From Mycobacteriales bacterium (GTDB taxonomy: Bacteria; Actinomycetota; Actinomycetes; Mycobacteriales; CADCTP01): 64,000 bases of DNA. The stretch covers positions 2,821-66,820 of the forward strand of contig JBBWZH010000045.1 in the NCBI GenBank assembly GCA_039648995.1. The letters run 5' to 3'. How positions within the stretch are numbered: position 1 is the first letter of the stretch; every line of letters starts with the position of its first letter. This document shows, piece by piece, positions 35,729-55,831 of this stretch. The position numbers and the translations under genes were made by a program. The notes beneath the pieces were generated by a model, which saw nothing but the letters and a program-made list of their open reading frames with translations, searched no databases and was not told the origin of the DNA.

Positions 35729-36370
35729 TCAGCCGCCGGCGGTGAGCAGCACGGCGACCGCGGTGCCGACCACCACCACGCCGAGGAGCAGCAGGACGGC
35801 GGCGACCGCGCCCCAGCCGATGGTGCCGGCCAGCCAGGCCCGCCACGCCGGCGCGTCCGGTGGCAGCCGGCGCAGCGCGTCGGCGGGAGCCGGGCCGAGC
35901 GGGAACTTCGCGTGCATCGCGGTCGCCCAGGCCCCAGGCTGCCGCCCCGCCGGCCCCACCGCGGCGGCCGGGTCGGGCGCGGCGCCGGCCAGCGCCGCGA
36001 TCAGCTGCTGGCGCCGGGCCAGCAGCGCCCACCGCTCGGCCGCGACCGCGCGGACCGGGCTGAACGCCCGCCGCTGGAGCCGTACGGTCGCCACCGTGAG
36101 GCCGGCCGCCGCGGCGCCGAGCAGCGCCGCCGCGAACAGTCCGGTGCCGAGGTCGCCGTCCTCCGCCGCGCCGATCACGCTGACCACCGCGACCAGGGCG
36201 AGCAGGAGCGCGACCGCGCCGGTCACGCACGCCAGCGCGAGCGGGCCGTAGCGGACCGCCGCGGCCGACTCGGCCCGGATCCCGGCGAGCCGCGCGTCCA
36301 CGCCGGCCAGCTCCTGCCGCAGCGCGGCCGCGCCGGCCGGGCCGGGCCGCCCGGGCTCATCGCCGGTCAT
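35729..36370 (-). CDS. Multi-pass membrane protein; candidate immunity protein
   Basis: ORF 35729..36388, with the likely start at the ATG at 36370 overlapping the upstream stop. Hydrophobic segments include LALACVTGAVALLLALVAVVSVIGA, LFAAALLGAAAAGLTVA and WGAVAAVLLLLGVVVVGTAVAVLL. Confidence 0.55.
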   Translation of the reverse strand: MTGDEPGRPGPAGAAALRQELAGVDARLAGIRAESAAAVRYGPLALACVTGAVALLLALVAVVSVIGAAEDGDLGTGLFAAALLGAAAAGLTVATVRLQRRAFSPVRAVAAERWALLARRQQLIAALAGAAPDPAAAVGPAGRQPGAWATAMHAKFPLGPAPADALRRLPPDAPAWRAWLAGTIGWGAVAAVLLLLGVVVVGTAVAVLLTAGG

Positions 36371-37175
36371 GGCCGAGCGCGGCGGCACCGATCAACCCGT
36401 GCGGGCGCCACCCGATCTCGCCGCCACCGTCCGGCGAGGAGAACCGCAGCGACATCGCCATCGCCGCCCCGTCCAGGCACCGCGGGCCGAACTCCGCCAG
36501 CACCGGCGTGGTCAGCGTCAACACGAACAGGCACTGGAACTCCTTGACCGGGACGTGCACCTGCAACACGCCGACATCGACGCCGGCCGCCTCGCCGCTC
36601 GGGCTCTCGGCGGCCTCGACCCGAACCGTCCGCAGTTCGGTGAGCGCTACCGCGGGCCCGCACGGCAGTGCGACGCCCACAACGTAGCGCCCGTCCCGGA
36701 ACACGCCCGGGCCGTCGTCCCCGGCCACCCCGCCGGCCAACGGCGGGAGGCCGTCGGCTCGCGGGAGGCCGTCCGGAGGTGGTTCGGCGGCGAGATCCGC
36801 CGCCGGGAGATCCGGCGTCGTGAACGAGTCGAAGATGCCCATCGCGGCGACCTCGACCGACTCGTAGTCCAGCGGGGTCAGCGCGCAGGACACGTACGCC
36901 GCGGTGAACTCGTCGCCGGCCCGGGAGTAGCGCAACGCCGCTGCCGCCACCCCGTTCCCGCCCTGCAGGTCGGCCACCGCGCTGAAGTGCGCCGTCGCGG
37001 CGGCCAGCTGGGCGTCATCGGCGGCCGGGAACATCATCCGGACCATGCGCTCGGTGCGGGCCAGCCGTACCAGCGGGTCGGCGTCCAGCGGGACCGGCCG
37101 GTAGCCGGCCGGCAGGTCGAGCCGCACCCGGGGGAACCCGACCGGGGCTCCGCTCGGCGGTGCTACCGCAGCCAC
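36357..37175 (-). CDS. Hypothetical protein (272 aa), cassette member
   Basis: ORF 36357..37295 trimmed to the GTG at 37175, a 13-nt overlap with the upstream TAG at 37163-37165. Good GC3. No motif recognised. Confidence 0.5.
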   Translation of the reverse strand: MAAVAPPSGAPVGFPRVRLDLPAGYRPVPLDADPLVRLARTERMVRMMFPAADDAQLAAATAHFSAVADLQGGNGVAAAALRYSRAGDEFTAAYVSCALTPLDYESVEVAAMGIFDSFTTPDLPAADLAAEPPPDGLPRADGLPPLAGGVAGDDGPGVFRDGRYVVGVALPCGPAVALTELRTVRVEAAESPSGEAAGVDVGVLQVHVPVKEFQCLFVLTLTTPVLAEFGPRCLDGAAMAMSLRFSSPDGGGEIGWRPHGLIGAAALGHDRR

Positions 37176-38416
37176 GCCGCCCGCCGGTCGGCCGCGTCCT
37201 GGTCCATCCCGTCGGTGACGTAGTTGTAGAAGCCGACGCCGGCCGGGCCGACGACGGCCTCGGCTCCCGCCTCGGCGCCCGAGCGCGGGACCCACTTGGC
37301 GAACGGGATGTCCGACGTGGTCAGGTCGCCGTCGACGGCCGCGCTGTTGACGGAGCCGCCGCCCGTGCCGGCCAGGCCCACGAGGGTCGACCCGCCGTCG
37401 TAGAAGCTGTAGTGGTAGCGCGCCGCCTCGCCGGCGGCCACCTGGCCGCCCTTGCCGAGCGCCTCGCCCTCGGCGATCGCCGCCTCGGCGCCCCGGGTGC
37501 CGAGCTTGCCGATCACGCCGGCACCGCCGGAGGCAGCCGCCACCCCGTCGAAGATCAGGGTTCCGGCGTTGATGCCCTTGGCGCCCGCCGCCCAGGCCAG
37601 CCCGTGCGCGCCCAGCGCGGCCAGGCCGAGGCCGCCGGAGATGGCCAGGCCGATCACGTCGGCCGGCGGCGGCAGGAACAGCGAGACGATGCCGACGATC
37701 GCGCTGAGGTCCGACATGAAGTCGCCGATGGCCTTGATCAGGTACTTGTGGTCCTTGACCCAGCCCCAGACCTTGCCCGGCAGGTCTTCCAGGAACTTGA
37801 CGCCGTCCTCGAACATCTTGCCGAGCCGCTCGAAGAAGCCCGGCTTGGGTGGCGCCGCCTTCGCCGCGTTCCGGATCGCCTGGGCGGCGGCCTGCAGTTC
37901 CTGACCGTGCTGGCCGGCCAGCTGCTGGGCCTGCCGGATGATCGCCCGCAGCGCCGTGTCGGCGTCGGTGACCGCGCGGCCGGCGGTCGCCGCGTCCTGC
38001 TTGAGCTGCGCGTCCTGCTCCGGCGTGCCGCCGGTGCGGCCGCGGTAGCCGTCCAGGTGGCCCTGCGCCTGGCCGAGCTTGGCCCGCGCCTCGGCGGCCT
38101 GCCGCTCGTACTCCCGCGCCCGGGACTTGAAGTCACGCAGCTGGGTGGCCCAGTTGGACAGCGCGCGGGCGGTGCTGGCGTTGGACTGCTCGGCCTTGTC
38201 CAGGTACGGCGGGAGCTCGCCGAGGGTCTGCGCGAAATTCCGGGCCGCCTCGCCCTGCCAGAAGCCGTTGTCCTGACCGATCTGGCCGAGCAGCGCCCGG
38301 ACGTCGCTGACCTGCCGGGCGACGGTATCCACCGTGGAGGCCAGCGCGCTGACCTGGTCGTCCAGCCCGGGTGCGGGATCGAAGCCGAGCGCCGGGAACG
38401 CGGGCGGCGGGCTCAT
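37163..38416 (-). CDS. Putative T7SS-secreted effector: WXG-containing helical N-domain plus glycine-zipper membrane region
   Basis: ORF 37163..38569 trimmed to the ATG at 38416 (ATGA overlap with the upstream stop). It starts MSPPPAFPALGFDPAPG and has a WxG in FWQGEAARNF. About 230 aa of Ala/Gln-rich helices follow, then GLAISGGLGLAALGAHGLAWAAGAKG. Confidence 0.65.
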   Translation of the reverse strand: MSPPPAFPALGFDPAPGLDDQVSALASTVDTVARQVSDVRALLGQIGQDNGFWQGEAARNFAQTLGELPPYLDKAEQSNASTARALSNWATQLRDFKSRAREYERQAAEARAKLGQAQGHLDGYRGRTGGTPEQDAQLKQDAATAGRAVTDADTALRAIIRQAQQLAGQHGQELQAAAQAIRNAAKAAPPKPGFFERLGKMFEDGVKFLEDLPGKVWGWVKDHKYLIKAIGDFMSDLSAIVGIVSLFLPPPADVIGLAISGGLGLAALGAHGLAWAAGAKGINAGTLIFDGVAAASGGAGVIGKLGTRGAEAAIAEGEALGKGGQVAAGEAARYHYSFYDGGSTLVGLAGTGGGSVNSAAVDGDLTTSDIPFAKWVPRSGAEAGAEAVVGPAGVGFYNYVTDGMDQDAADRRAAWLR

Positions 38417-38712
38417 TTCGGCTTCCCGTCCGGCGTCATGCTGGATTTGATGGCGTCCTCGGTCTCGGTGTAGACCTTGATGGCCCCATCCATGCGGTCG
38501 GCGATTCCCTTGGCGAACTTGGCGACCTGGCCGATCCCGTAATGCCAGTCGCCGGCGAAATCGCCGCACGCGTCGTCCAATTCACGGCCGCCGAGCTGCT
38601 CCGGGCTTACCGACTTCAGTGTGCCGGCGGCATTGTCGAGCCGGCCCTCGGTATCTCGCAGGCCGCTCTGCAGGCCTTTCAGCTGGTCGATCTCGACCTT
38701 GAACCCAGCCAC
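38413..38712 (-). CDS. Small (~99 aa) helical WXG100-sized protein with a C-terminal YxxxE motif
   Basis: ORF 38413..38754. The likely start is the GTG at 38712 behind GGCGGGGG. The central Trp lies in GDWHYGIG. The C-terminal VYTETEDAIK contains YxxxE, resembling the EsxB-type export signal. Confidence 0.55.
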   Translation of the reverse strand: MAGFKVEIDQLKGLQSGLRDTEGRLDNAAGTLKSVSPEQLGGRELDDACGDFAGDWHYGIGQVAKFAKGIADRMDGAIKVYTETEDAIKSSMTPDGKPK

Positions 38713-38909
38713 GCGGACCCCCGCCGTCTCGTAGTCGGCACAGTTTAGCCACAACCCGGGCAGGACGGGTCATAACGTCCAGCAACGCGCACATTGCATA
38801 ACCGACAGTTACAGCGAGCGGGGATCGCGGGGCTGACTCAGCCGGCCCCGAGCACCATCCGGAAACAACCGCCTACGGACAGGAACGTCGGCGCCAATCA
38901 GCCGGCGCG

Positions 38910-39361: not shown

Positions 39362-40117
39362 GTGTCTCAGTGGAAGCCCGTGGCGGCCGAGCTCGATCCG
39401 GCGGTACGGCGGATGGTGGTCTCGCTGCGTACGGTCAAGGACGAGGCCGGGCTCAGCACGACCGCGCTGGCGGGCAAGACGCCGTACAGCCGGTCGGCGT
39501 GGGACCGGTACCTCAACGGCCGGGCGTTCCCGCCGCGCGAGGCGGTGGCGGCGCTGGTCCGGGTCGCGGGCGCCGACGAGGCGCGGCTGCTCGCGGAGTG
39601 GGAGCTGGCCGACTCGGCCCGCGCGGCCGCGGTGCCCGCCGGGGCCGCGGCGCCACTGGACGGCCCGGATGTGCCGGGCGGCGCGACCGGCGGCTCGGCA
39701 GCGGGTGCCGGCGGGCGGCGGCGCTGGGGCGTCGTGGCCGCGGGCGTGGTCGTGATCGCCGCGGCGGTCGTGGTCGGCGCGCTGTGGCTGTCCGGCGGCG
39801 GCCAGCCGGCCCCCCGTGCGGCATCCGCCGCGACCCGGGCCGGGGCACCGGATCTGACCTGCCACCTCGGTCGTACCGGCGGGCGCCTGTACGCCGGGCA
39901 CAGCACCACGTCCGACCGGCTGGTCGCGATGAACGGGGCCGGGCAGGACGTGGTCGAGGTGCAGTGCCTGCTCAAGCAGCGCGGGTTCGATCCGGGCCGG
40001 GTGGACGGGCTGTTCGGCGAGCACACCGCGACCGCGGTCAAGCAGTTCCAGCACGCCGCGGGCACGCCGGCGGATGGCATCGTCGGCCCGCAGACCTGGG
40101 CGCTGCTGCGCGGATGA
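39362..40117 (+). CDS. Membrane-tethered HTH protein with C-terminal peptidoglycan-binding domain
   Basis: 251 aa. N-terminal XRE-like HTH (GLSTTALAGKTPYSRSAWDRYLNG). TM segment WGVVAAGVVVIAAAVVVGALW. The PG_binding_1-like C-terminus includes VDGLFGEHTATAVKQFQ and DGIVGPQTWALL. Confidence 0.75.
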   Translation: MSQWKPVAAELDPAVRRMVVSLRTVKDEAGLSTTALAGKTPYSRSAWDRYLNGRAFPPREAVAALVRVAGADEARLLAEWELADSARAAAVPAGAAAPLDGPDVPGGATGGSAAGAGGRRRWGVVAAGVVVIAAAVVVGALWLSGGGQPAPRAASAATRAGAPDLTCHLGRTGGRLYAGHSTTSDRLVAMNGAGQDVVEVQCLLKQRGFDPGRVDGLFGEHTATAVKQFQHAAGTPADGIVGPQTWALLRG

Positions 40118-41145
40118 CCGGCGACTGGCGGCCGCTGCCAGCGTCGCTGGATCCCGAGCTCGCCTACCTGGTGGGTGTGCTGCGGGAGTTGAAGGACCGG
40201 TCGGGTCGCAGCCTGGACGCGCTGGCCGCCGAGACGGCGGTCAGCAAGTCGTCCTGGCAGCGGTACCTGAACGGCACCAAGCTCCCCTCCCGGTACGCGG
40301 TCGACGCGCTCGGCCGGCTGGCCGGCGAGCCCACCGACCGCCTGCTCGCCCTCTGGCGGCAGGCGGAGGCGAGCTGGAGCCGCCGGGCCGCCGCAGACCC
40401 GCCCGCCGCCGAACGGCCCCCTGCCGGCCCCTCCCCTGCCGGCTCCTCCGCCATCGACCCGGCCGCCGCCGACCCGGCCGCCATCGACCCGGCCGCCGCC
40501 GACCCGGCCGCCGCCGACCCGGCCGGTGCCGACCCGGCCGGTGCGGTCCGGCGTCCGGCCGAGCCGGCGCCGGCCGGCGTACGGCGGGGCTGGCGCTGGG
40601 CCGTGGCGGTGGGCGCGGCGGCCGTCCTGGCCGGTGCCGCCGCCCTGGCCGGCGTGATCGCGCACGACCGCGAGCCCGGCGCGGCCGCGCCGGCGGTCCT
40701 GTCGCCGTCGCCGTGGCCGGTCCCGGTCGGCTGCCACGGCGGCACCTGCACCGGGCAGGATGCGCTGGACATGGCCTGTTCCGTCGACGCGGCCTCGTAC
40801 GCGCAGTTGCGGGTGGCCGGCGCGTGGCTGGAGCTGCGGATCAGCGACGAATGCCGCGCCGGCTGGGCCCGGGTCGCGCACGCGGCGGCCGGCGAGCAGG
40901 TGCAGGTGGCGAGCCAGGACGGCAGCACGCGGTCGGCGACGATCCAGGGCTCGGCGGGCACCGACCAGTTCCTGTCGACCCGGATGGTCGGGGCCGGCCA
41001 GCACGCGGAGCTGCGTGCCTGCCTCATCGCCCGCGACGGCGTCCACCGGTGGTGCACGCCGCCCGGTGCCGAGCGTCGGGTCAGCGTTCCCGCCCCGGCC
41101 GACCGGCCGGCCTCGCCGGCCCCGCTCCGCTCCGGGCAGCCCTGA
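40114..41145 (+). CDS. Membrane-tethered HTH protein with DUF2690-like C-terminal domain (paralogue of the upstream gene)
   Basis: ATG at 40114 forms an ATGA overlap. 343 aa. HTH is GRSLDALAAETAVSKSSWQRYLNG and TM is WAVAVGAAAVLAGAAALAGVI. The Cys-rich C-terminus (GQDALDMACSVDA...LELRISDECRAGWARV) recalls DUF2690. Confidence 0.7.
   Translation: MTGDWRPLPASLDPELAYLVGVLRELKDRSGRSLDALAAETAVSKSSWQRYLNGTKLPSRYAVDALGRLAGEPTDRLLALWRQAEASWSRRAAADPPAAERPPAGPSPAGSSAIDPAAADPAAIDPAAADPAAADPAGADPAGAVRRPAEPAPAGVRRGWRWAVAVGAAAVLAGAAALAGVIAHDREPGAAAPAVLSPSPWPVPVGCHGGTCTGQDALDMACSVDAASYAQLRVAGAWLELRISDECRAGWARVAHAAAGEQVQVASQDGSTRSATIQGSAGTDQFLSTRMVGAGQHAELRACLIARDGVHRWCTPPGAERRVSVPAPADRPASPAPLRSGQP
40456..40545 (+). 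repeat. Six tandem copies of a 15-bp unit (GACCCGGCCGCCGCC and variants), in frame
   Basis: Units start at 40456, 40471, 40486, 40501, 40516 and 40531. They encode DPAAA/DPAAI/DPAGA pentapeptides in the cytoplasmic linker. Confidence 0.85.
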
Positions 41146-41426: not shown

Positions 41427-44400
41427 ATGCGGTTCGTGTTCGGCGACGCGGGCGCCGAGTTGGAATGCGAGCTCGCGGTCCGCCGCCCGGATGCCCGGGT
41501 CGGTGATCTTGCCGCCGCGCTCGGCGTGCCCGGTGGCGCGCTGCTGGTCGACGGGCGCTGGTTCCGGGGCGACGCCGGCGTGGACGGCTGCGGCCTCGTG
41601 CTCGGCGCGCGGGTCGTGCCCCCCGGGCCCGCGGCGCACCCGGCGGCGCCGGCCCCGGCCGCGGTCCTGCAGCTGGTCGGTGGTCTGGGCGCCGGCCGGT
41701 CGGTGCCGCTCCCGGTGGGTCGTACGGTCGTCGGCCGGGGTTCCGGCTCGACTGTGGTCCTGCCGGCGGTCGACGTGTCCCGCACCCACTGCGCGATCGA
41801 GGTCGGTCCGTCCGGCGAGGTGACCGTCACCGACCTGGCGTCGCGCAACGGGACGGACCTGAACGGACGCCGGCTGGACGCCCCGGTCAGGCTGCGCCCG
41901 GACGACCTGGTCTGCCTGGCCGGTGAGGTGTTGCTGCGGGTGGTGCCGCCGGGCCACGCCGGGCCGGTCCAGCACGTGAACCCGGTGCGGGAGGCACGCG
42001 CGGCGGGCACGATCCCGTTCAACCGGGTGCCGCGGGTGGCCGAGCCGGAGCCGCCGCGCCCGGTGCGGTTCCCGGAAGCGCCGAGCCAGGCCTTCAAGGC
42101 GCCGTTCAGCGTGGCGGCGATGCTCGGGCCGATCGCGATGGCCGGCGCGATCGTGGCGCTGACGAAGAACTGGCAGTTCGCGGCGATCGCGGGACTGTCG
42201 CCGCTGATGTTCCTGGGCAACTTCATCGAGGAGCGCACCCGTGGCCGGCGCGGCCTGCGGCGGGCCACCCGGGAGTACGCGGCGAAGCTGGCAGCGACCG
42301 GGGTGGAGCTCGCGGCGCGGCACGCCGGCGAGGTAGCGGCGCGGCGTACCGCGTCGCCGGACCTGGCCGAGCTGCGGTTCCGGGCGCAGGCGCCGGGTCA
42401 ACGGCTGTGGGAACGGCGCCGGCGGGCCGGCGACTTCCTGCGGGTCTCGGTGGGGTACGCGGACCTGCCGTGGCAGCCGCCGATCGCCTCCCGGTCCGAG
42501 GAGTTGCCGCCGGACGCGACCCGGCTGGTCGCGGCGCTCGGCCCGCTGCCGCAGGTGCCGGTGGAGATCGAGGTCGGCGCGGGCGGGGTGGTCGGCATCG
42601 GCGGTGACCGGCCGGCGGCGCTGGCCGCGGCGCGTGCGCTGCTGTGCCAGGCGGTGGTGACCAGCGGGCCGGCGGACGTGACCGTGGCGGTGTTCACCGA
42701 CCCGGACCGGTTGGCCGACTGGGATTGGACGAAGTGGCTGCCGCACGGCGCGGATCCGCAGTCGGGCTCGGCCCGGCTGGTCGCGGTCGGCGCCGCGCAG
42801 GCCGACGCGCTGGCCAAGTCACTGCTGGCCGCCGTCCCGGGCCCCGAGCCGGCCGGGACCACCGGCCGCCCGGTGACGCTGATCGTGGTGGACGGGGCGG
42901 CGCTGCTGGAGGGCCGGCCGTGCCCGCTGCGGGACCTGCTGGCCGGCGCCGGCCCGTGCGGCGGAATCGTGCTGACCGACCGGCTGCCCGCGCTGTGCAC
43001 GTCGATCCTGACCGTCCGGGGCGACGGGGCCGGCCGGCTGGAGCGGGTGACGACCGGCGCGCAGGTCGATCGGCTGCTGGTCACCGGCATCGGCGAGCCG
43101 GACGCGCGGTCGGTGGCCCGGGCGCTGGCCCGGTACGAGGACCCGGAGCTGCGCGCCGACGGCGCCGGCCTGCCGGACCGGGTGAACCTGCTGTCCCTGC
43201 TCGACCTCCCGGAGGTCTCCGGCGCCGCCGTCGCGAACCGGTGGCGCGCACAGGCGCCGGCCTACCGGGTGGGTACGGTGCTCGGCGTCGCCGAGCGGGA
43301 CCTGTTCGCGATCGATCTGGACGGCGACGGCCCGCACGGGCTGATCGCCGGGACGACCGGGTCGGGCAAGAGCGAGTTGCTGCGGACGCTGGTCGCGGGC
43401 ATGGCGGTGGGGGCCAGCCCGGAGCAGTTGACGTTCGTGCTGATCGACTACAAGGGTGGCGGTGCGCTGGATGAGTGCGCCCGGCTGCCGCACGTGGTCG
43501 GGCTGGTGACCGATCTGGACGAGCACCTGGGTGAGCGGGCGCTGCGGTGCCTGGAGGCCGAGGTGCGCCACCGGGAGCGGGCGCTGCGCGCGGTCGACCT
43601 GTCGCACGTGCGGGACTACCAGCGGCTGCGGGACACGGCCCGGCCGGAGCTGGAGCCGATGCCGCGGCTGCTGGTGCTCATAGACGAGTTCGCCACGCTG
43701 GTCACGGCCTTGCCGGACTTCGTGGACTCCCTGGTCAGCATCGCCCAGCGCGGCCGCAGCCTGGGCATGCACCTGATCATCGCCACCCAGCGGCCGGCCG
43801 GGTCGGTCAGCGACGCGATCAAGAACAACGTGAAACTGCGGATCGCGCTGCGGCTGGAAAGCACCGGCGACTCCCTCGACGTGATCGACAACCCGGCCGC
43901 GGCCGGGATCGGCAGCCGGCAGTGGGGCCGCGGCTACTACCGGGTCAGCGCCCGCGAGGTACTCGCCGTGCAGACCGCGCTCTCCACCGCCATCACCCCG
44001 GACGCGGCGGTCAGCACCCCGATCAGCGTGACACCGTTCGCGCTCGGCGCCGACCCGCACGGGCAGGAGCAGGCCGAGGGCGAGACCGACCTGGCCCGGC
44101 TGGTCGCCGCCGTGGCCGGCGCGCAGGCCGCCGCCGGGTTCGCGCCGCCGCGCCGGCCCTGGCCCGAGCCGCTGCCGCCGGTGCTGCCGCTGGCCGACCT
44201 CCCCCCGGCCGCGTCGCGCGGCCTGCAGACCGACACGACCGGCCTGCCCACGCTCGCCATCGCCGACGACCCGGACCGGCAGAGCCAGTACCCGGTCGGC
44301 TGGGCGCCCGAGGCCGGCAACCTGCTCGTGTACGGCGCGGTCGGCGCCGGCACGTCGACCACGCTGGCGGCCCTCGCCCTCGGCGTCGCCGGCGCGACCG

Positions 44401-45674
44401 GCCCGGACCGGCTGCACCTGTACGCGCTCGACCTCGGCCCGGGCGACCTCGCCCCGCTCGCCGACCTGCCGCACACCGGCGCGTACATCGGCGCCGGCGA
44501 GGCCGAACGGCAGATCCGGCTGATCCGGATGCTGCGCCGCGAGGTCGACCGGCGCAAGACCGCCGGCGGCGGCACCCGCTGGCTCGTCCTCATCGACAAC
44601 CTCGGCGCGCTGCTGGCGGACAACGACAAGGACACCGCCGGGATGAGCCGCACCGACGACCTCACCCGCGTCTACACCGACGGGCCCACCGTCGGCATCC
44701 ACATCGCCGCCACCGCCGACCGCACCGGCGCCGTACCCGCGGCCTGGAACGCGATCACCCAGCAGAAGCTACTGCTGCGGCTCGCCGACCCCGGCGAGTA
44801 CGGCAACTTCGACGTGCCGCGCAGGGCCGTCCCCGCCGCGCTGCCCGGCCGCGCCGTGATCGCCGCCACCCACCAGGTCGTCCACATCGGACACCCCGGC
44901 GACCTGCCCGCCGCGGTACGCGGGGTCGCGGCGCGGTGGGCCGACCAGCCGGGGACCGCGGCACCGGTCGGCGTGCTCCCGGACCGGATCGCTCTGTCGC
45001 AGGTGGACAGTCGCGGATGGACCGGCGCGGAACCCTGGCAGCTGCCCCTCGGCATCGGCGACACCCGCCTCGCCCCGGCCGGGCTCACCCTCTACGAGCA
45101 CGAGCACGCGCTGATCACCGGCCCGTCCCGGTCCGGCCGCAGCCTCGCGCTGTGCACGGTCGCCGCGGCCGCGCTGGCCGCCCCGCGACCGCCGGCCGTC
45201 ATCGTGTACGCCCCGCGCCGGTCGCCGCTGCGCGACCTACCCGGGCCGGTCACCGTGCTCACCGGCTACGCCGAGCTCGGCGACGCGCTGGCCGCCGCCG
45301 GCCCGACGCTCGTCCTCGTCGACGACGCCGAGACCGTCGAGGACGACCAGGGACTGCTCGAAGGCTGGCTCGCCGCCGCCGGCCCCGGCCGCCACCTGGT
45401 CGCCGCCGGCCGAGCCGACGGCATCCGCCGCAGGTACGGCGGCTGGGCCCAGAAGGTGCGCGACAGCCGCTGCGGCGTCCTGCTCGTCCCCGACCACGAC
45501 CTCGACGGCGACCTGCTCGGCATCACCCTGCCCCGCCTCGACCGGATGGCGCCCGTCCCCGGCCGCGGCTACCTCATCGCCAACGGCACCGCCGAAGGCA
45601 TTCACATCGCCCTCCCCGACCCGCCCGACCCGCCGGCCGCGCTCGCCGAGCCCGCTCTGGAAGGGACATCCTGA
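41427..45674 (+). CDS. FHA-domain FtsK/SpoIIIE-family triple-P-loop ATPase (EssC-like T7SS ATPase)
   Basis: 1415 aa. The FHA-like region is GRTVVGRGSGSTVVLPAVDVSRTHCAIEV...LASRNGTDLNGRRL. Two TM segments (PFSVAAMLGPIAMAGAIVAL, FAAIAGLSPLMFLGNFI). Three NTPase domains: GTTGSGKSELLRTLV with LLVLIDEF, the degenerate GAVGAGTSTT, and GPSRSGRS. Confidence 0.85.
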   Translation: MRFVFGDAGAELECELAVRRPDARVGDLAAALGVPGGALLVDGRWFRGDAGVDGCGLVLGARVVPPGPAAHPAAPAPAAVLQLVGGLGAGRSVPLPVGRTVVGRGSGSTVVLPAVDVSRTHCAIEVGPSGEVTVTDLASRNGTDLNGRRLDAPVRLRPDDLVCLAGEVLLRVVPPGHAGPVQHVNPVREARAAGTIPFNRVPRVAEPEPPRPVRFPEAPSQAFKAPFSVAAMLGPIAMAGAIVALTKNWQFAAIAGLSPLMFLGNFIEERTRGRRGLRRATREYAAKLAATGVELAARHAGEVAARRTASPDLAELRFRAQAPGQRLWERRRRAGDFLRVSVGYADLPWQPPIASRSEELPPDATRLVAALGPLPQVPVEIEVGAGGVVGIGGDRPAALAAARALLCQAVVTSGPADVTVAVFTDPDRLADWDWTKWLPHGADPQSGSARLVAVGAAQADALAKSLLAAVPGPEPAGTTGRPVTLIVVDGAALLEGRPCPLRDLLAGAGPCGGIVLTDRLPALCTSILTVRGDGAGRLERVTTGAQVDRLLVTGIGEPDARSVARALARYEDPELRADGAGLPDRVNLLSLLDLPEVSGAAVANRWRAQAPAYRVGTVLGVAERDLFAIDLDGDGPHGLIAGTTGSGKSELLRTLVAGMAVGASPEQLTFVLIDYKGGGALDECARLPHVVGLVTDLDEHLGERALRCLEAEVRHRERALRAVDLSHVRDYQRLRDTARPELEPMPRLLVLIDEFATLVTALPDFVDSLVSIAQRGRSLGMHLIIATQRPAGSVSDAIKNNVKLRIALRLESTGDSLDVIDNPAAAGIGSRQWGRGYYRVSAREVLAVQTALSTAITPDAAVSTPISVTPFALGADPHGQEQAEGETDLARLVAAVAGAQAAAGFAPPRRPWPEPLPPVLPLADLPPAASRGLQTDTTGLPTLAIADDPDRQSQYPVGWAPEAGNLLVYGAVGAGTSTTLAALALGVAGATGPDRLHLYALDLGPGDLAPLADLPHTGAYIGAGEAERQIRLIRMLRREVDRRKTAGGGTRWLVLIDNLGALLADNDKDTAGMSRTDDLTRVYTDGPTVGIHIAATADRTGAVPAAWNAITQQKLLLRLADPGEYGNFDVPRRAVPAALPGRAVIAATHQVVHIGHPGDLPAAVRGVAARWADQPGTAAPVGVLPDRIALSQVDSRGWTGAEPWQLPLGIGDTRLAPAGLTLYEHEHALITGPSRSGRSLALCTVAAAALAAPRPPAVIVYAPRRSPLRDLPGPVTVLTGYAELGDALAAAGPTLVLVDDAETVEDDQGLLEGWLAAAGPGRHLVAAGRADGIRRRYGGWAQKVRDSRCGVLLVPDHDLDGDLLGITLPRLDRMAPVPGRGYLIANGTAEGIHIALPDPPDPPAALAEPALEGTS

Positions 45675-45967
45675 TGTCCGACCCGCCCCCGTTCGACTTC
45701 GGCGCGGCCGACCACCTGAGCCAGCAGCTGGCACAGCTGAAAGCGAAACTCGAGTGGTTCGCCTGGGTGCGTACGACCCAACGCCACAGCCGGTTGGGCT
45801 CGCCGTCGAGCGACAACTGGATGGGCCACCGGCGGGGCGATTTCGAGGCCCGGTTCGGCCGCGAGCAGGCCGCTCTGCACGACCTCGCCAGCGCCGCCCT
45901 CGCGGCCAAGGCCCGCGTCGACAGCGACATCGCCGGCGCCCACGCGGCGCGGCAGAAGGCGCACTGA
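45674..45967 (+). CDS. Small (97 aa) WXG100-like protein
   Basis: ATG at 45674 overlaps the ATPase stop (TGATG). Helical, with a central WxG in SDNWMGHRRG. Confidence 0.55.
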   Translation: MSDPPPFDFGAADHLSQQLAQLKAKLEWFAWVRTTQRHSRLGSPSSDNWMGHRRGDFEARFGREQAALHDLASAALAAKARVDSDIAGAHAARQKAH

Positions 45968-45980
45968 GTAGAGGCATGCC

Positions 45981-47648
45981 ATGACCGACGTCTCCGCCAT
46001 CCCGTTCAATCTCTACTCATACTCCGACGCCTGCACGCACGCCGCCCAACAACTGCAGGACTGGGTACACGGCGTGCTGGGGCCGGCGCTGCGCGAATAC
46101 CAGAACGGCGGCGGCACCTGCTTCACGATCGACGCCGACACCGCCGCGCACGTGTCCGCCACGTACCACACGGATCGGGATGTCCGCCTCGTCGGCAAGG
46201 CGTTCGAGCGCGCCGGGCACGCGCCACCGGGCCCGCTGACGCCGTACTCCGCGCCCGAGAAGGAGGTGGACGCGACCTACCGGGCGCTCAAGGCCGCCGC
46301 CGAGCACGGAGCCGAGATGCGCGCCGGCGCCGCACTCGCCGCGAAGATGTCCACCCACCGTGACGCGCGGAACATCGAGTGGATAACCCACATGCTCGGC
46401 GAGCACGCCGGCGACAAGTACTTCGCGGCCGGCTTCTTCAACTCGCTGTCCGCGGACCAGATCGCCGAACTGCTCGGCCACGGGCGGAACACCAGGGCGC
46501 TGGTGTCCGCGTACGCCAGTGGCGCGCTGACGCCGGAGACGATGAATGATGTGGTGCGGGCGCTCACCTGGGTCCAGGGCGGCGATCTATCCCCGCAACA
46601 CTGGCACATCACGCCCGGCGTGCAGGTCTCGGTACTCAAGGCGCTGGCCGCGGACAAAGCCGCCGCGGCGAATTTCGCCAAGCTGCTCACCACGGCTCAG
46701 GCGCGCAAGCTCTTCGACAGCTCACCGGCGCGGAACGGCCGCGCCTGGAACGACTACGGCACCCAGGTCGCCTTCCTCGACCTGCTCGCGACCGCGGCCG
46801 ACGCGGCCGATTCGTCGGCGGCGAAGGAGCTCCTGGAAAAGGTCGCGCCGGCCTTCTCCGGTACGCCGTCCGCTGACGAACTCAGGGCGGTGATGCCGGC
46901 GCTGTCGGCGTTCCTGGTCGCCTCGACCCGAGGGCTGCTGAACTCCGACATAGGGCCGCTGACCGGCAACCCGGCCGAGGACGACGCCCGGATCGGCAAG
47001 TGGGCGACCGCCAACGCGGCCAACCTCGGCCTGCTCAAGGAGTACGTCGAGTGGGTTTCGCGGGGGGAGGAGAAATTCAACCTGGGCCACGAGAAGCAGG
47101 CCAGTTCGCTGGCCGAGTTGGGGATCGACCTGGTCGTAGCCGGGATGCTGGAGAAGGTGTTGCCGGTGGAGGGCGACAAGGCCGCCAAGGCGGCGAGGCT
47201 CGGCATCCATGCGCTGATCGGCACCGGCGCGGTCCAGACGTTCGAGCCGTGGATCGCCCGCGCGCTGAGCGAGGGCGGCAACAAGGAATTCGACGCCGAG
47301 CTCGCCCGGTTGATCAACAAGGATCTCGGTGACGACGCGAAGAAGCCGAAGGAAGTTCTCGGCGACGTGGTCTGGCAGAAGTCGCGGGTGCTCACCACGA
47401 TCCTGGCCTTTCAGCAGCTGCCGGTCTACCGCACCGGCGCCGGCGGGCACGCCCGCCGGGTGACGCTGCACTCCGAATTCGGTACGACCGACCCGGGCCA
47501 GTTGCAGGTGAAGGTGCTGAGGGCGATCAACAGCGGCGACTGGGCGAGACACGTCGAGATCCGCGGCGAGCACGGTCACATCATGAGTCTGGAAGACCTA
47601 CTGGCGAACCTGTCGAAGTCAGCGCACGGTTCGCCGAATTTCTGGTAG
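45981..47648 (+). CDS. Hypothetical 555-aa helical protein (possible T7SS substrate or accessory factor)
   Basis: Long intact ORF in an operon context between two WXG-like genes. Lys/Glu content is unusually high for this genome. No motif recognised. Confidence 0.6.
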   Translation: MTDVSAIPFNLYSYSDACTHAAQQLQDWVHGVLGPALREYQNGGGTCFTIDADTAAHVSATYHTDRDVRLVGKAFERAGHAPPGPLTPYSAPEKEVDATYRALKAAAEHGAEMRAGAALAAKMSTHRDARNIEWITHMLGEHAGDKYFAAGFFNSLSADQIAELLGHGRNTRALVSAYASGALTPETMNDVVRALTWVQGGDLSPQHWHITPGVQVSVLKALAADKAAAANFAKLLTTAQARKLFDSSPARNGRAWNDYGTQVAFLDLLATAADAADSSAAKELLEKVAPAFSGTPSADELRAVMPALSAFLVASTRGLLNSDIGPLTGNPAEDDARIGKWATANAANLGLLKEYVEWVSRGEEKFNLGHEKQASSLAELGIDLVVAGMLEKVLPVEGDKAAKAARLGIHALIGTGAVQTFEPWIARALSEGGNKEFDAELARLINKDLGDDAKKPKEVLGDVVWQKSRVLTTILAFQQLPVYRTGAGGHARRVTLHSEFGTTDPGQLQVKVLRAINSGDWARHVEIRGEHGHIMSLEDLLANLSKSAHGSPNFW

Positions 47649-47673
47649 TCCCACCCCGAGGAGAGGAACTGGA

Positions 47674-47949
47674 ATGCCCACCGTCAAGTCGACCGACATG
47701 GCGCACCAGGAAGCGACCAAGATGCTCAGCATCATCAACAGCCAGATGCCGACGCTGATCAACCAGCTGAACAGCCACGGGCAGCAGCTGTCCGACCCGA
47801 ACAACTGGGACGGGCCGCTGGCGCAGCGCTTCCGCGGCGAGGTGTGGCCGCAGGCGAAGGGCGACCTGGACAAGATGAAGACGGGCCTGGAGCAACTGCA
47901 GCACCAGGTACAGAAGATCCTGACGAACATCACGAGCGCGGGCAGCTGA
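47674..47949 (+). CDS. WXG100 family protein (EsxA/EsxB-like)
   Basis: 91 aa, helix-turn-helix hairpin size, with a central WxG in NNWDGPLAQRF. Strong RBS GAGGAGAGGA upstream. Confidence 0.8.
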   Translation: MPTVKSTDMAHQEATKMLSIINSQMPTLINQLNSHGQQLSDPNNWDGPLAQRFRGEVWPQAKGDLDKMKTGLEQLQHQVQKILTNITSAGS

Positions 47950-48038
47950 CCGACCAACTGCCCCATCGGGGGTTGCGGTACGGCCCGCGACGCCGGGCCG
48001 TACCGCCACCGGCGGTTCACGTGAGGGTGCGAGATTCG

Positions 48039-49949
48039 ATGCCGATGTTTTCGAAGTTGTCCCGGCCGGCGGACGAGCAGGTGGAGAAGGTGCCCGGGTA
48101 CCGGGACCTGCGGCCGCTCGCGCGCGGCGGGTTCAGCCTGGTGTACCGGGCGCACCAGGAGGCGCTGGGCCGCCAGGTCGCGCTGAAGGTGGTCACGGTC
48201 GCCGTGGACGAGGGCGTCCGCCGGCGGTTCCTGCGCGAGGTGGCGCTGACCAGCCGGCTCACCGGGCACCCGAACGTGGTCACCACGCTGGACACCGGGC
48301 TGGCCCGGTCCGGCCGGCCGTACCTGGCCATGGACCTGTACGAGCGCGGCTCGCTGATGGACCGGCTGGCCGCCCAAGGCCGGCTGCCCGCGGTCGAGGT
48401 GGCCCGCATCGGCGCGCGGATCGGCTCGGCGCTGCACGCCGCGCACCGGGTCGGCGTCGTGCACCGGGACGTGAAGCCGAGCAACATCCTCATCTCCCGG
48501 TACGGCGAGCCGGTGCTGTCCGACTTCGGCGTCGCCTGCCTGCTCGACGACCAGATGTCGGCCACCGTCGCCGGCACGTTCACGCTCCGGCACGCCGCGC
48601 CCGAGTTGGTCGACGGCGGCCAGCCCACCCCGGCCTGCGACGTCTACGCCCTCGGCTCGACGATGTACGAGCTGCTCGCCGGCCGGCCCGCGTTCGGCGG
48701 CCGCGGCATGGCGATGGCTGCGCTACTGCAGCAGATCCTCACCACCGCGCCGGCCGAACTGCACTGCCCCGAGCTGCCGCCGCTGGTCGACGTGATCGGG
48801 CGCGCGATGGCCAAACGCCCGCAGGACCGGTACCCGGACGCGGCCGGGCTCGCCGCCGCCCTCGACCAACTCGCCCCCGCCGGAGCCGCATCCGCCGGCC
48901 CGCCGGACAGCGCCGGCCGCCCGTGGCGCCCGACCGGCAAACGCCAACGCACCCTGCCCCTCGCCTCAACCCGCGACCCGACCGCTCCGGCCGACCCGGC
49001 GCCGGCTGGCCCGACTGCCCCGGGCGACCCGGCGGCTGGACCGGCGCCGGCGCGCCTGGCCGGTCTGGCTGCCCCGCGCGACCCGGCGGCTGGACCGGCG
49101 GCGGGTCCGCCCGCGACGGCCGGGCCCGCGGGATCGCCAGCGGTCGGGCCGGTCGGCGCGGTTCCCGGGCCGGGCACCGCCGGGGTCGGCGACTGGGCCG
49201 AGACCGCATTGCGTCCCGGCCGGGAACGGTCGCCGGTCCTGGCCGCACCGGCGGTGAAACGGCGGGCCAGGACGGTCGCCGCCGTGGCGAGCGTGCTGCT
49301 CGTGCTGGGCACCGTCGGTGGGCTGCTCTACTGGCAGTTCCGGCCGGACGGCCCGACCGCCCTCGCGCCGGCCGCACAGGGCCGCCAGCAGCCGCCGGCC
49401 GGCGCGGCGTCCGCAGGCAAGCTGGTGCCCGGCCATACCGCCACGGCGGGCCGCCGGCCGGCCCGGCCGGCCCAGCCCCCGGCCGGCGGCTACCCCGGCG
49501 GCCAGCAGCCGGGGCCGGCCGGCGCTCCCGGCCCCGCCGGGCCGCCGGGCCCGGACGGCCAACCCCAACCGCCGGCCCAGTCGGCGCCACCGGCGAACCC
49601 GCGGCAGCCCCCGCCGGCCGCGCCGCCGGCGAGCAGGCCCGCGCCGCCGCCGGCCAAGCCGGCCAAGCCGGCCAAGCTCGCGGTCGACGGCAAGTTCGGC
49701 TCGGCCACCTGCGCCGCGTTGCAGCGCGCGCTGAACAAGCACCACCACGCCGGCCTCGCGGTAGACGGCGCGTTCGGCACGCAGACCAAGAAGGCCTTGC
49801 AGCGGGCGCTCGGCGTCACGGCCGACGGCGTGATCGGCCCGGTCACGGTCAAGGCGCTGCAGCGGCACGTCGGCGCCACCGTCGACGGCCAGTGGGGCAG
49901 CGACACCACCCGCCACCTGCAGACCGCCCTGAACGCCGACCGGTTCTGA
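48039..49949 (+). CDS. Transmembrane Ser/Thr protein kinase with extracellular peptidoglycan-binding repeats
   Basis: ATG at 48039 within ORF 47844..49949. Hanks motifs VALKV, HRDVKPSNIL and SDFGVA. A Pro/Ala-rich linker is followed by the TM segment VAAVASVLLVLGTVGGLLYW. Three DG-x-FG-x-x-T-x-x-ALQ repeats sit at the C-terminus. Confidence 0.85.
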   Translation: MPMFSKLSRPADEQVEKVPGYRDLRPLARGGFSLVYRAHQEALGRQVALKVVTVAVDEGVRRRFLREVALTSRLTGHPNVVTTLDTGLARSGRPYLAMDLYERGSLMDRLAAQGRLPAVEVARIGARIGSALHAAHRVGVVHRDVKPSNILISRYGEPVLSDFGVACLLDDQMSATVAGTFTLRHAAPELVDGGQPTPACDVYALGSTMYELLAGRPAFGGRGMAMAALLQQILTTAPAELHCPELPPLVDVIGRAMAKRPQDRYPDAAGLAAALDQLAPAGAASAGPPDSAGRPWRPTGKRQRTLPLASTRDPTAPADPAPAGPTAPGDPAAGPAPARLAGLAAPRDPAAGPAAGPPATAGPAGSPAVGPVGAVPGPGTAGVGDWAETALRPGRERSPVLAAPAVKRRARTVAAVASVLLVLGTVGGLLYWQFRPDGPTALAPAAQGRQQPPAGAASAGKLVPGHTATAGRRPARPAQPPAGGYPGGQQPGPAGAPGPAGPPGPDGQPQPPAQSAPPANPRQPPPAAPPASRPAPPPAKPAKPAKLAVDGKFGSATCAALQRALNKHHHAGLAVDGAFGTQTKKALQRALGVTADGVIGPVTVKALQRHVGATVDGQWGSDTTRHLQTALNADRF

Positions 49950-54842: not shown

Positions 54843-55048
54843 CGCACGAACCGGCCGTCCGGCAGGGCGGAGCGCTGGACAGCAGGCGGCGTCGACGGGT
54901 CTTCAGGCGACGTCGACGCCGGCGGCCGGCCGCGGCTCGCCACCCCGGTCAGGGCGCCGCCGGCCGGCCAGTCGGTTCGACCCGATGGGTGGGCAGCGTC
55001 CCGGCAGGCACGCTCAACGCACCGACGCGGCGAGTTATCGCATGGCGG

Positions 55049-55082
55049 TTGACACAGGTCATCTACTCAATGATTCTTGAGT
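55049..55082 (+). promoter_or_regulatory. ars promoter/operator candidate
   Basis: TTGACA at 55049-55054, followed by the inverted repeat ACTCAA (55065-55070) - 6 nt - TTGAGT (55077-55082). This sits in a locally AT-rich patch that overlaps the first possible start codon of the ArsR-like gene. Confidence 0.4.
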
Positions 55083-55831
55083 CAATGGACGTTGACTGGG
55101 ACGGTGTGCGGGGCCGGGCGGCGGTGCACGCGGCGCTGGCCGAGCCGGCGCGGCTGGCCGTGGTCGAGCAGCTGACCCTGGGTGACCGCTCACCGGGCGA
55201 GTTGGGCGAGGCGTTGGGCCTCCCGTCGAACCTGCTCGCGCACCACCTGCGGGTGCTGGCCGACGCGGGGGTGGTGGCGCGGTCGCGGTCGGAGGCCGAC
55301 CGGCGCCGCACCTACCTGCGCCTGCTGCCGGCCGCGCTGGCGGGCCTGCTACCGGCAGCCGGGGTGGCGACGGCGCCGCGGGTGGTGTTCGTGTGCACGC
55401 ACAACTCGGCCCGTTCGCAGTTGGCGGCGGCGGTCTGGGCGCGCCGCAGCCGGGTGGCGGTCGCCTCGGCCGGCACCCAGCCTGCCGCGCGGGTGCATCG
55501 CGGGGCGGCGGCGGTGGCCCGCCGGCACGGCCTGGCCCTGGCCGGGGCGCGGACCGCGCACGTGCGGGACGTGGCCGAACCCGACGATCTGATGGTCGCG
55601 GTCTGCGACCGGGCGTATGAGGAACTCAGCGACCGTCCCGGCCGGCTGCACTGGTCGGTGCCCGACCCGGTGCCCGCCGGGTCGGCGGCCGCGTTCGAGC
55701 AGGCATTCCAGGACATCGAGGCGCGCGTCGAGCGGCTGGCCGGCGCGCTCGTCCCGGACCCACGCGGCAGGCACCGAGGTACCGGCGACCCGGGGGTCGG
55801 GGCACGCACCGGGGACGGGAGTCGGCGGTGA
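55070..55831 (+). CDS. arsR: ArsR-family HTH fused to an LMW-PTP-type arsenate-reductase-like domain
   Basis: ArsR HTH: LAVVEQLTLGDRSPGELGEALGLPSNLLAHHLRVLADAGVV. The C-terminal domain has VFVCTHNSARSQ (CX5R). Start is the ATG at 55070 or at 55085. Confidence 0.75.
   Translation: MILESMDVDWDGVRGRAAVHAALAEPARLAVVEQLTLGDRSPGELGEALGLPSNLLAHHLRVLADAGVVARSRSEADRRRTYLRLLPAALAGLLPAAGVATAPRVVFVCTHNSARSQLAAAVWARRSRVAVASAGTQPAARVHRGAAAVARRHGLALAGARTAHVRDVAEPDDLMVAVCDRAYEELSDRPGRLHWSVPDPVPAGSAAAFEQAFQDIEARVERLAGALVPDPRGRHRGTGDPGVGARTGDGSRR

Follow-up and report, generated by a model that had tools for sequence, protein, structure and literature searches.

A compact gene module built around a 1415-aa type VII secretion system (T7SS)-class membrane ATPase was identified at positions 41,427 to 49,949 of a 64,000-nucleotide stretch of contig JBBWZH010000045.1 (Mycobacteriales bacterium, assembly GCA_039648995.1). 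The whole stretch is referred to as the window and has a G+C content of ~75%. All five genes that a preliminary description had grouped here, encoding the ATPase, a 97-aa WxG protein, a 555-aa protein, a 91-aa WXG100 protein and a transmembrane Ser/Thr kinase, were recovered at the same coordinates. Three of them, for the ATPase, the 91-aa protein and the kinase, form a core that recurs in related genomes. The ATPase combines a predicted ubiquitin-like domain with an FHA domain whose phosphothreonine (pThr)-binding residues are intact, the linked kinases keep their catalytic residues, and other known T7SS components are absent from the module. We lean towards reading this core as a compact, phosphorylation-controlled type VII-like export unit, and as a T7SS subtype that is widespread in mycelial Actinomycetota but has no name yet. 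Literature searches turned up no description of this family of ATPases with ubiquitin-like (Ubl) and FHA domains (Ubl-FHA-ATPase family), in line with the earlier view that such a unit would be poorly characterised territory.

The membrane ATPase and its N-terminal domains

The FtsK_SpoIIIE domain of the ATPase was matched in Pfam with an E-value of 5.5e-52. Against NCBIfam, the protein scored 468 bits for EssC (cut-off 778), 377 for EccCa (cut-off 509) and 294 for EccCb (cut-off 347), while the DNA-pump models reached 68 bits for FtsK (cut-off 1566) and 21 for TraB (cut-off 800). Its solved relatives in the PDB were T. curvata EccC (4nh0), EccC5 and B. subtilis YukB with 263, 215 and 203 bits, respectively, and FtsK motor structures matched the first motor domain, D1, at 71-73 bits. 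The window's own EccC shares 31% identity with it over residues 326-1239, which cover the DUF region, D1, D2 and part of D3. Two membrane helices followed by a DUF and three FtsK-like P-loop domains make up the layout of T7SS ATPases, and this is also the layout of the 1415-aa protein. Hydropathy peaks at residues 225-247, with a weaker second stretch at ~250-270. Ahead of the membrane segments lies a PFNRxPR motif, of which P197, F198, R200 and P202 are invariant in 36 homologues and which corresponds to the EssC-type FxRxPR motif. F-x-R-x-PR precedes the membrane helices in EssC and in TscC to TsjC (Fig. S2 in PMC11217815).

From the T7SS model scores, the solved relatives, the EccC alignment and the FxRxPR motif, the protein is judged to be a T7SS ATPase, as had been proposed, of a diverged kind and not a DNA pump, and its sequence appears no closer to EssC than to EccC. 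A canonical Walker A/B pair is present in D1 only (GTTGSGKS/LLVLIDE); the pairs of D2 and D3 read GAVGAGTS/LVLIDN and GPSRSGRS/LVLVDD, and the Walker motifs of all three domains are nearly invariant across the homologues. Pfam, hydropathy and the Walker pairs thus agree with the described order of an FHA domain ahead of the membrane segments and three P-loop domains behind them. The canonical EccC of the window carries no FHA domain, also as described, and scores 727 bits for EccCa and 674 for EccCb, both above cut-off; its coordinates were corrected to 59944-63927 on the reverse strand.

The FHA domain was located in Pfam at residues 100-164 with an E-value of 1e-13. An AlphaFold2 (AF2) model of residues 1-238, built with 35 homologues, reached a mean predicted local distance difference test (pLDDT) of 81 and consisted of two domains, so that the AlphaFold check suggested for the N-terminus yielded a ubiquitin-like domain next to the FHA. 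Residues 1-65 follow a strand-strand-helix-strand-strand-strand order with a pLDDT of ~90, and the FHA sandwich occupies residues 79-173. Foldseek searches with the two-domain model returned FHA matches only, the first being Rv0020c FhaA, OdhI, GarA and MDC1 with template modelling (TM) scores to the target of 0.8-0.9. The residues G103, R104, S118, R119, H121, N141 and G142 (GR/SxxH/NG), which bind phosphothreonine, are invariant in 36 homologues. These residues and the nearest folds agree with the pThr binding that had been assumed, and the FHA domain is predicted to be of the canonical phosphothreonine-binding type.

When residues 1-76 were modelled alone (pLDDT 86.5, predicted TM score 0.72), the top 50 PDB matches in Foldseek were all ubiquitin or ubiquitin-like proteins with TM scores of 0.5-0.64. 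A profile search of PDB sequences with the ATPase N-terminus returned ubiquitin, SAMP2, RAD23 and ISG15. Among 32 N-terminal fragments of diverse family members, YukD (PF08817) was matched in Pfam by four, with a best E-value of 2.9e-4. SAMP2 ties YukD in the number of members matched, but at a much poorer E-value, and most of the other Pfam families matched by the fragments were beta-grasp or ubiquitin-like. Of the earlier guess that the first residues form a YukD-like ubiquitin fold, the fold is supported by the models for residues 1-65, while kinship with YukD is weak. The comparison with a firmicute EssC architecture did not stand, because the ATPase has a ubiquitin-like domain and one canonical FHA, whereas EssC has two FHA domains that both lack the pThr-binding residues (PMC11217815).

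Conserved core, optional cassette and linked kinase

For synteny, 76 genome loci were fetched, all proteins encoded between 35.7 and 53.5 kb of the window served as tblastn queries against them, and all called open reading frames (ORFs) of the related loci were clustered to find further conserved genes. Window genes were called by codon-position G+C followed by a translation check, and in the related loci ORFs shorter than 50 aa were left uncalled. The core was counted in the 49 loci with an ATPase of at least 55% identity that is followed by 3.5 kb of sequence or more. Within 3.5 kb downstream of the ATPase, 49 of 49 loci encode a homologue of the 91-aa protein, and a kinase was found within 5 kb downstream in 47 of 49 by tblastn. 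In the two remaining loci, the kinase was found by clustering (L034) or lies upstream on the other strand (L003). The synteny check that the preliminary description had called for therefore links the FHA-ATPase with both neighbours, and since the same order recurs in 49 independent loci, the arrangement is not due to chance. Clustering of the called ORFs revealed no further universally conserved gene beyond the core.

The other known T7SS parts were searched for around the module and in the related loci. EccB, EccD, EccE and MycP had no Pfam or NCBIfam match in the genes from 35.7 to 59.7 kb, as expected from the earlier reading of the sequence, nor among the clusters conserved across 75 loci. 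EssA, EssB and EsaA were not matched among the genes accompanying the module, and no TsdH-like or TsdI-like gene was conserved in the 75 loci among called ORFs of at least 50 aa. Intergenic gaps in minimal loci measure 60-250 bp. A second EccC within 10 kb was found in none of the 75 related loci.

More than 120 full-length homologues of the ATPase were found; the best 120 were 1330-1560 aa long at 57-69% identity, all with FHA and FtsK_SpoIIIE domains, and the source annotation of the homologues reads only "FtsK/SpoIIIE domain-containing protein". Residues 1-330 were searched against 1.84 billion cluster representatives (clusters at 50% identity). The Ubl-FHA-membrane N-terminus was recovered in 79 clusters at E-values of 1e-30 or lower, and all 150 matches listed have E-values below 1e-23. 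Among these 150, most align from residue 1 or near it, and the complete ones are ~1400-1800 aa long. Among the taxa represented in the 49 loci counted for the core are Streptomyces, Actinacidiphila, Catenulispora, Actinospica, Actinocrinis, Catellatospora, Rugosimonospora and Streptosporangiaceae.

Further neighbours of the module are regulators that vary by lineage. In 26 loci the gene directly upstream encodes a HisKA_3 histidine kinase, and in 15 the Ser/Thr kinase is followed by a LuxR-type response regulator. Streptomyces loci carry an AraC-type regulator, HTH-membrane-DUF2690 proteins and small PG_binding_1 proteins. In the Catenulisporales (L017, L019, L021, L023-L025, L028-L031, L034, L039-L041, L045, L052 and L054), a two-component system brackets the module, with a divergent HisKA_3 sensor kinase upstream and a LuxR/NarL regulator after the Ser/Thr kinase, and the WXG100-like protein has a C-terminal extension of the GLPVVGSLPVVGGL type. 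Distant members at 40-46% identity occur in metagenome-assembled genomes of Chloroflexota and Nitriliruptoraceae (L059, L064, L065 and L075) and in Acidimicrobiales (L067 and L068). Both Acidimicrobiales loci retain the adjacent kinase, and L068 also the WXG100-like gene. Homologues of the kinase and the WXG100 protein were not found by tblastn in L059, L064, L065 and L075, so the composition of the core may differ outside the class Actinomycetes.

The kinase (best start at 48039, 636 aa) matched Pkinase in Pfam with an E-value of 9e-40 and has a single membrane helix at residues 410-434 with a hydropathy of 2.21, and is thus the transmembrane Hanks kinase it had been taken for. The beta3 lysine, HRD, catalytic asparagine, DFG and PE are kept in 48 of 48 linked kinases. 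The linked kinases are accordingly predicted from their residues to be active enzymes, unlike the EssB/YukC pseudokinase. At the C-terminus, PG_binding_1 (E-value 4.7e-10) and PG_binding_3 (E-value 1.2e-7) were matched in Pfam. The three peptidoglycan-binding repeats described before turned out to be four DGxxGxxT half-repeats with motifs at residues 550, 576, 596 and 616 (span 550-636), corresponding to about two PG_binding_1 units. Orthologous ectodomains consist of one PG_binding_1 in Streptomyces, Ricin_B_lectin in Catenulispora and fn3 in Catellatospora and others. The proposal of a peptidoglycan-sensing kinase therefore fits the window and Streptomyces but is not universal, as the ectodomain changes by lineage, and peptidoglycan binding appears to be one option among several envelope or glycan-binding kinase heads.

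A short motif was found between the catalytic domain and the membrane helix of the kinase. The threonine and the arginine at +3 of T-x-[LVF]-R are invariant in all 48 linked kinases (the window and 47 from loci L004-L063), within a linker that is otherwise hypervariable and rich in proline and alanine, and the membrane helix usually follows ~20 residues later. The motif reads, for example, AETALRPGR in the window kinase, QLTILRR in Streptomyces and DDTMVRPDR in Catenulispora. The motif resembles ETTSVFR, the phospho-motif for auto-recognition of GarA and OdhI, and the FHA domains of these two proteins are among the nearest folds to the ATPase FHA in Foldseek. T389 of the window kinase is a candidate both for the FHA docking threonine and for the phospho-acceptor.

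The expected WxG motif is present in the 91-aa protein as NWDG, and the Pfam match to WXG100 reached 21.2 bits, below the cut-off of 27.3. Nine of 16 members of its family match WXG100 and no other family (best E-value 5e-5). In a profile search of the PDB, the top ranks were mainly Esx proteins with E-values of 0.006-0.1, the best being S. aureus EsxA (2vs0, 0.006). Across the family, the WxG context is invariant, and a NIxxAGG tail is conserved at the C-terminus. The 97-aa gene, with the motif NWMG, overlaps the ATPase gene by TGATG as first described (TGA 45672-45674, ATG 45674-45676), and is predicted to be translationally coupled to it. The 97-aa protein itself had no Pfam match, and five of 14 family members match WXG100 below threshold; the best PDB match of the family profile was again S. 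aureus EsxA (E-value 0.04). Alignment of the 97-aa and 91-aa families with hhalign gave an E-value of 1e-4 over the full length with the WxG in register.

The 97-aa and 555-aa genes, which had been counted as part of the module, proved to be an optional cassette outside the core. A homologue of the 97-aa gene always stands directly upstream of a 555-aa homologue. The pair travels together and occurs in 33 of 49 loci, where its place is behind the kinase or else between ATPase and 91-aa gene; it is absent from all Catenulisporales loci. The 555-aa protein, listed as unknown in the preliminary description, has no family match in Pfam, NCBIfam or PADLOC, nor do 10 relatives, and a word-index homology search returned five hypothetical proteins. 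Column conservation in its family is 0.5-0.63 in the N-terminal part and falls gradually to ~0.25 towards the C-terminus. A polymorphic toxin with a swapped C-terminus was considered for this protein and rejected, as the length is stable at ~500-620 aa and conservation declines without a break. Hydropathy analysis found no signal peptide or hydrophobic segment in the 91-aa, 97-aa and 555-aa proteins, which would therefore need a non-Sec route if exported. The cassette is probably a cargo plus its partner.

Proposed function, described systems and competing explanations

The invariant GR/SxxH/NG of the FHA domain, the intact kinase residues and the invariant T-x-[LVF]-R point to a matched signalling pair. 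We propose how the export unit might work. The ATPase would oligomerise in the membrane like EccC and EssC, with D1 as the sole canonical motor and with D2 and D3 in regulatory or substrate-binding roles as in EccC. Engagement of a cell-wall or glycan ligand by the kinase ectodomain would lead to autophosphorylation at T389, and the ATPase FHA, positioned by the fused ubiquitin-like domain, would dock on the phosphorylated residue. Docking would assemble an ATPase-kinase core equivalent to YukB-YukC-YukD of T7SSb, in which the kinase has decayed to a pseudokinase, the FHA no longer binds pThr and the ubiquitin-like protein is a separate polypeptide. Once assembled, the unit would export the 91-aa WXG100-like protein, which is probably a homodimer, and in cassette-bearing loci the 97-aa partner together with the 555-aa protein. 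A stronger version holds that the module is a self-sufficient minimal T7SS, whose core of Ubl-FHA-ATPase and active receptor kinase is switched on by FHA-pThr binding upon an ectodomain cue, and which is the still-catalytic counterpart of T7SSb EssC-EssB-EsaB; this we put forward tentatively, as possible and rather doubtful.

Several observations weigh against an independent export unit. The ATPase stays under all three T7SS equivalog cut-offs of NCBIfam, and every WXG100 match of the small proteins lies below the Pfam and NCBIfam cut-offs. The channel partners EccB, EccD, EccE, EssA, EsaA and TsdI were not found with the module, so each protomer would contribute only two ATPase helices and one kinase helix to the conduit, an arrangement without precedent. 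The locus has no conserved phosphatase. For the ubiquitin-like domain, Foldseek gave modest E-values of 5e-3 to 5e-2, and YukD and EccD structures were not found among its top 50 matches. Secretion of the WXG100-like protein by the module is presumed from gene content, the T-x-x-R as phospho-acceptor or FHA ligand is a candidate role, and the canonical ESX apparatus, whose EccC lies 10 kb away in the window, may be used jointly.

Among described systems, those defined as T7SSc to T7SSj by Garrett, Higginson and Palmer 2024 (PMC11217815) are relevant, where a T7SS in the broad sense consists of TsxA, TsxB and TsxC. An active membrane kinase is paired with the ATPase in T7SSc, d, e and j, and the pThr residues of the FHA are kept in d, e and j (PMC11217815). 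T7SSd is the sole new subtype in Actinomycetota, known from Olsenella and Bifidobacterium, with TsdA (WXG100), TsdC (an FHA-ATPase with its pThr motifs kept), TsdD (active membrane kinase), TsdH (small, with one membrane helix) and TsdI (1654 aa, with a signal peptide, Ig-like domains and a C-terminal membrane helix), and explicitly without a ubiquitin-like component (PMC11217815). The module resembles it in belonging to Actinomycetota, in an FHA-ATPase with GR/SxxH/NG, an adjacent active-type membrane kinase and a single WXG100-like gene, and in the absence of EccB, EccD, EccE and MycP. It differs in having neither TsdH nor TsdI, in the ubiquitin-like domain fused to its ATPase and in its hosts, which are mycelial soil actinomycetes. 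TsdC has a longer N-terminus, in which ~230 residues precede the membrane region and which is alignable to the N-terminal FHA region of EssC, and the ectodomain of TsdD is helical, whereas that of the module kinase is PG_binding_1, ricin or fn3.

The core unit of T7SSb is made up of YukB, YukC and YukD (Oka et al. 2025, PMC12637312; also Tassinari et al. 2022, PMC9600267), and YukD fixes the FHA domains of YukB, which enables binding of the pseudokinase YukC (Oka et al. 2025, PMC12637312). The module shares with it an FHA-ATPase with stalk and DUF, a one-helix kinase-fold protein with an ectodomain, a single WXG100-like protein and a ubiquitin-like module, which in T7SSb contacts the FHA. However, the kinase residues of the module are intact and its FHA keeps the pThr site, while EssB is a pseudokinase and the EssC FHA has lost that site. 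Moreover, the module has one FHA instead of two, its ubiquitin-like domain is fused in cis, and EssA/YueC and EsaA/YueB are absent.

With T7SSa/ESX-4 the module has the DUF-D1-D2-D3 core in common, and T7SSa also has a ubiquitin-like domain, located on EccD. EccC, in contrast, has neither an FHA nor a ubiquitin-like domain, whereas the module ATPase has an FHA and scores below the EccCa and EccCb cut-offs; T7SSa further needs EccB, EccD, MycP and an Esx pair, none of which accompany the module ATPase. T7SSc of Bacillota (TscA-G; PMC11217815) resembles the module in that its kinase TscD is active, that a ubiquitin-like component is present and that there is one gene of WXG100 type, and its ATPase clusters nearer to EccC. 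Approximate D1 identities to the subtype representatives, taken from sequences read by optical character recognition from Fig. S2 of PMC11217815, range from 41 to 49%, with TscC highest at 49%, TsdC at 46% and EssC at 45%; in the same approximate comparison, TsdC scored lowest among the representatives other than EccC5. T7SSc belongs to another phylum than the module, and its TscC has no FHA domain. It also includes a vWA protein, a PPM phosphatase and an EspG-like chaperone, and the module has no conserved counterpart of these three. A likeness outside type VII secretion also exists. In M. tuberculosis, the ABC exporter Rv1747 has N-terminal FHA domains and is regulated through threonine phosphorylation by the adjoining kinase PknF. 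Here too, a membrane transporter with a cytoplasmic FHA is encoded beside a Hanks kinase, and the Rv1747 FHA structure 6cah was among the PDB matches of the ATPase, but Rv1747 is an ABC transporter with no WXG100 partner and no ubiquitin-like domain. T7SSd and the T7SSb core unit are the closest described systems; the module matches neither and appears to be a new variant, unnamed and widespread, of the type VII secretion theme.

Four other explanations were weighed. The module could be an accessory to a canonical T7SSa that plugs into or regulates the ESX-4-like apparatus of the window's EccC and provides a phospho-regulated entry for special WXG100 substrates. Such a role would agree with an EccC above both cut-offs in the same window, with the module's lack of channel-forming partners and with the EccC-like DUF/stalk region of its ATPase. 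It is nevertheless unlikely. A further EccC does not occur within 10 kb in any of the 75 related loci, and in the window the module and EccC stand 8.5 kb apart with unrelated genes between them. Having membrane helices of its own and the full DUF-D1-D3 set, the ATPase is a duplicate of EccC and not its complement. That the module is a plain T7SSd (TsdA/TsdC/TsdD) with accessory genes lost or unrecognised seems less probable still. Phylum, single WXG100-like gene, pThr-competent FHA-ATPase and adjacent active membrane kinase are common to both (PMC11217815), but TsdH-like and TsdI-like genes are not conserved among the called ORFs of the 75 loci, the short gaps of minimal loci leave no space for them, and the ubiquitin-like domain fused to the ATPase has no counterpart in T7SSd (PMC11217815). 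In addition, D1 is not specifically TsdC-like by the approximate identities given above, the TsdC N-terminus goes with the FHA region of EssC, and the available text of PMC11217815 and its supplements nowhere mentions Streptomyces, Catenulispora or Micromonospora.

The two other explanations do without protein export. As an envelope signalling or DNA-handling device in sporulation septation or conjugation, the module would have a kinase that regulates an FtsK-like translocase via the FHA, with the small helical proteins as cytoplasmic adaptors. Mycelial actinomycetes use FtsK-like pumps in conjugation and spore DNA segregation, homologues are annotated as FtsK/SpoIIIE DNA segregation ATPases, and D1 does match FtsK structures. 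DNA translocases, however, have one motor and a DNA-binding gamma domain, whereas the module ATPase has a DUF and three P-loops, its T7SS model scores are five to seven times the FtsK score with TraB still lower, and the invariant WXG100-like neighbour is a T7SS hallmark, which together make this explanation improbable, slightly more so than a plain T7SSd. Least probable, and in our view very remote, is an anti-phage module of kinase and FtsK-type ATPase like MADS mad6/mad8 in a defence island beside Wadjet. In PADLOC, the ATPase D1 scored 134 bits against mad8 and 99 against SspH, the kinase scored 184 bits against mad6 and ~205 against PD-T4-6, and a complete JetA2B2C2D2 Wadjet lies at 27218-35654. 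These matches span only the generic P-loop and Hanks domains, the NCBIfam score for MADS6 was 123 bits where the cut-off is 460, no other MADS genes are present, the flanks of the 75 related loci hold regulators and housekeeping genes rather than defence genes, and the WXG100 gene and the EccC-like DUF-D1-D3 would be left unexplained. The defence reading was rejected because only generic domains match in NCBIfam and PADLOC.

Genomic setting and meaning of the module

The features of the module and of two possible accessory regulators are compiled in the table. Genes after the ATPase are closely spaced, with 13 bp between the 97-aa and 555-aa genes, 25 bp between the 555-aa and 91-aa genes and 89 bp before the kinase. 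A promoter and terminator scan of 37-51.6 kb gave nothing above shuffle expectation, so operon boundaries were judged from gene spacing only.

Table. Coordinates of the module features and nearby candidate regulators in the window, with the basis of each assignment.
Feature	Coordinates	Strand	Basis
Core gene 1, EccC/EssC-type membrane ATPase, 1415 aa	41427..45674	+	Pfam, NCBIfam, PDB match
Predicted ubiquitin-like beta-grasp domain, ATPase residues 1-65	41427..41621	+	AF2, Foldseek
FHA domain, ATPase residues 79-173	41661..41945	+	Pfam, Foldseek
ATPase membrane segment(s), residues ~225-270, after PFNRxPR motif	42099..42236	+	Hydropathy
ATPase DUF and D1 (~615-850), D2 (~940-1180), D3 (~1200-1400)	42402..45626	+	EccC alignment, Walker motifs
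Optional cassette gene 1, 97-aa WXG100-like	45674..45967	+	NWMG motif, family profile
Optional cassette gene 2, 555-aa soluble protein, candidate cargo	45981..47648	+	Cassette synteny
Core gene 2, 91-aa WXG100-like	47674..47949	+	Pfam WXG100 below cut-off, NWDG
Core gene 3, transmembrane Hanks Ser/Thr kinase, 636 aa	48039..49949	+	Pkinase
Kinase juxtamembrane T-x-[LVF]-R motif, T389-R392	49203..49214	+	Alignment of 48 linked kinases
Kinase membrane helix, residues 410-434	49266..49340	+	Hydropathy 2.21
Kinase ectodomain, four DGxxGxxT half-repeats, PG_binding_1-like	49686..49946	+	Pfam, motifs
Possible accessory regulator, HTH_31 - membrane helix - PG_binding_1	39362..40117	+	Pfam; helix 120-148
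Possible accessory regulator, HTH_31 - membrane helix - DUF2690	40114..41145	+	Frame analysis, Pfam; helix 161-184

The two regulator genes upstream of the ATPase (39362-41145) overlap by ATGA and encode membrane-anchored one-component regulators, one of which has a PG-binding head in common with the kinase. A separate homologue of the PG_binding_1 regulator occurs downstream of the kinase in some Streptomyces loci (e.g., L011), and in others (e.g., L004) the tblastn match falls within the kinase's own PG_binding_1 C-terminus. Proteins like the DUF2690 regulator (cluster C8) were found downstream of the module in 8 Streptomyces loci. The association of the PG_binding_1 regulator with the module is loose, and the presence of regulator relatives near Streptomyces modules suggests that regulators and module respond to an envelope signal in common.

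At 35729-38754 on the reverse strand lies an operon of its own for Esx-like substrates. Its first gene (38413-38754) encodes a 113-aa small helical protein with a WxG-like GDWHYG and overlaps the start of the second (37163-38416), whose product of ~417 aa starts with MSPPPAF and has a WXG100-like N-terminus (FWQG), a weak T7SS_signal match and a Gly/Ala-rich hydrophobic C-terminus. Two genes without an assigned family end the operon, the last with membrane segments. It was considered as part of the module and rejected, since other loci show no synteny between it and the FHA-ATPase. The gene immediately downstream of the canonical EccC (58489-59718, reverse strand) encodes a DUF6177 protein (323 bits), perhaps a companion of ESX loci in actinomycetes that has yet to be characterised; the remainder of this ESX locus extends past the end of the window.

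Elsewhere in the window, the complete Wadjet on the reverse strand scored 447 to 1392 bits in PADLOC for JetA2, JetB2, JetC2 and JetD2, with JetD at 34308-35654, JetA at 32687-34234, JetB at ~31425-32720 and JetC at 27218-31342. A small non-ribosomal peptide cluster occupies 131-19665 with two stand-alone adenylation enzymes, a C-T-TE protein and a C-A-T module, along with an MFS transporter, an iron-containing redox enzyme, a PRMT-like methyltransferase and a SARP/NB-ARC regulator (17479-19665). At 54989-57209 on the forward strand, an ArsR-type HTH fused to a low-molecular-weight phosphatase/arsenate-reductase domain stands before a MIP-family channel; together they resemble a gene pair for arsenic resistance, and the called ORF boundaries overlap.

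The a-j classification of 2024 does not cover the Ubl-FHA-ATPase family despite its size. The T7SS field is without a minimal, genetically tractable system, and the trigger of channel opening is unclear. A three-gene unit would rank among the simplest T7SS layouts known, and it occurs in Streptomyces and many other culturable actinomycetes. Phospho-regulated T7SS assembly becomes directly testable with the module. The swaps of the kinase ectodomain between PG-binding, ricin lectin and fn3 suggest that lineage-specific environmental or cell-wall cues are sensed, and the 97-aa/555-aa cassette provides a family of uncharacterised candidate effectors. For T7SSb, the module offers an evolutionary reading of the EssB pseudokinase, the non-binding EssC FHAs and the free EsaB. 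If the module is indeed a minimal machine, this would suggest that the firmicute pseudokinase-FHA contact is the fossil of a phospho-switch.

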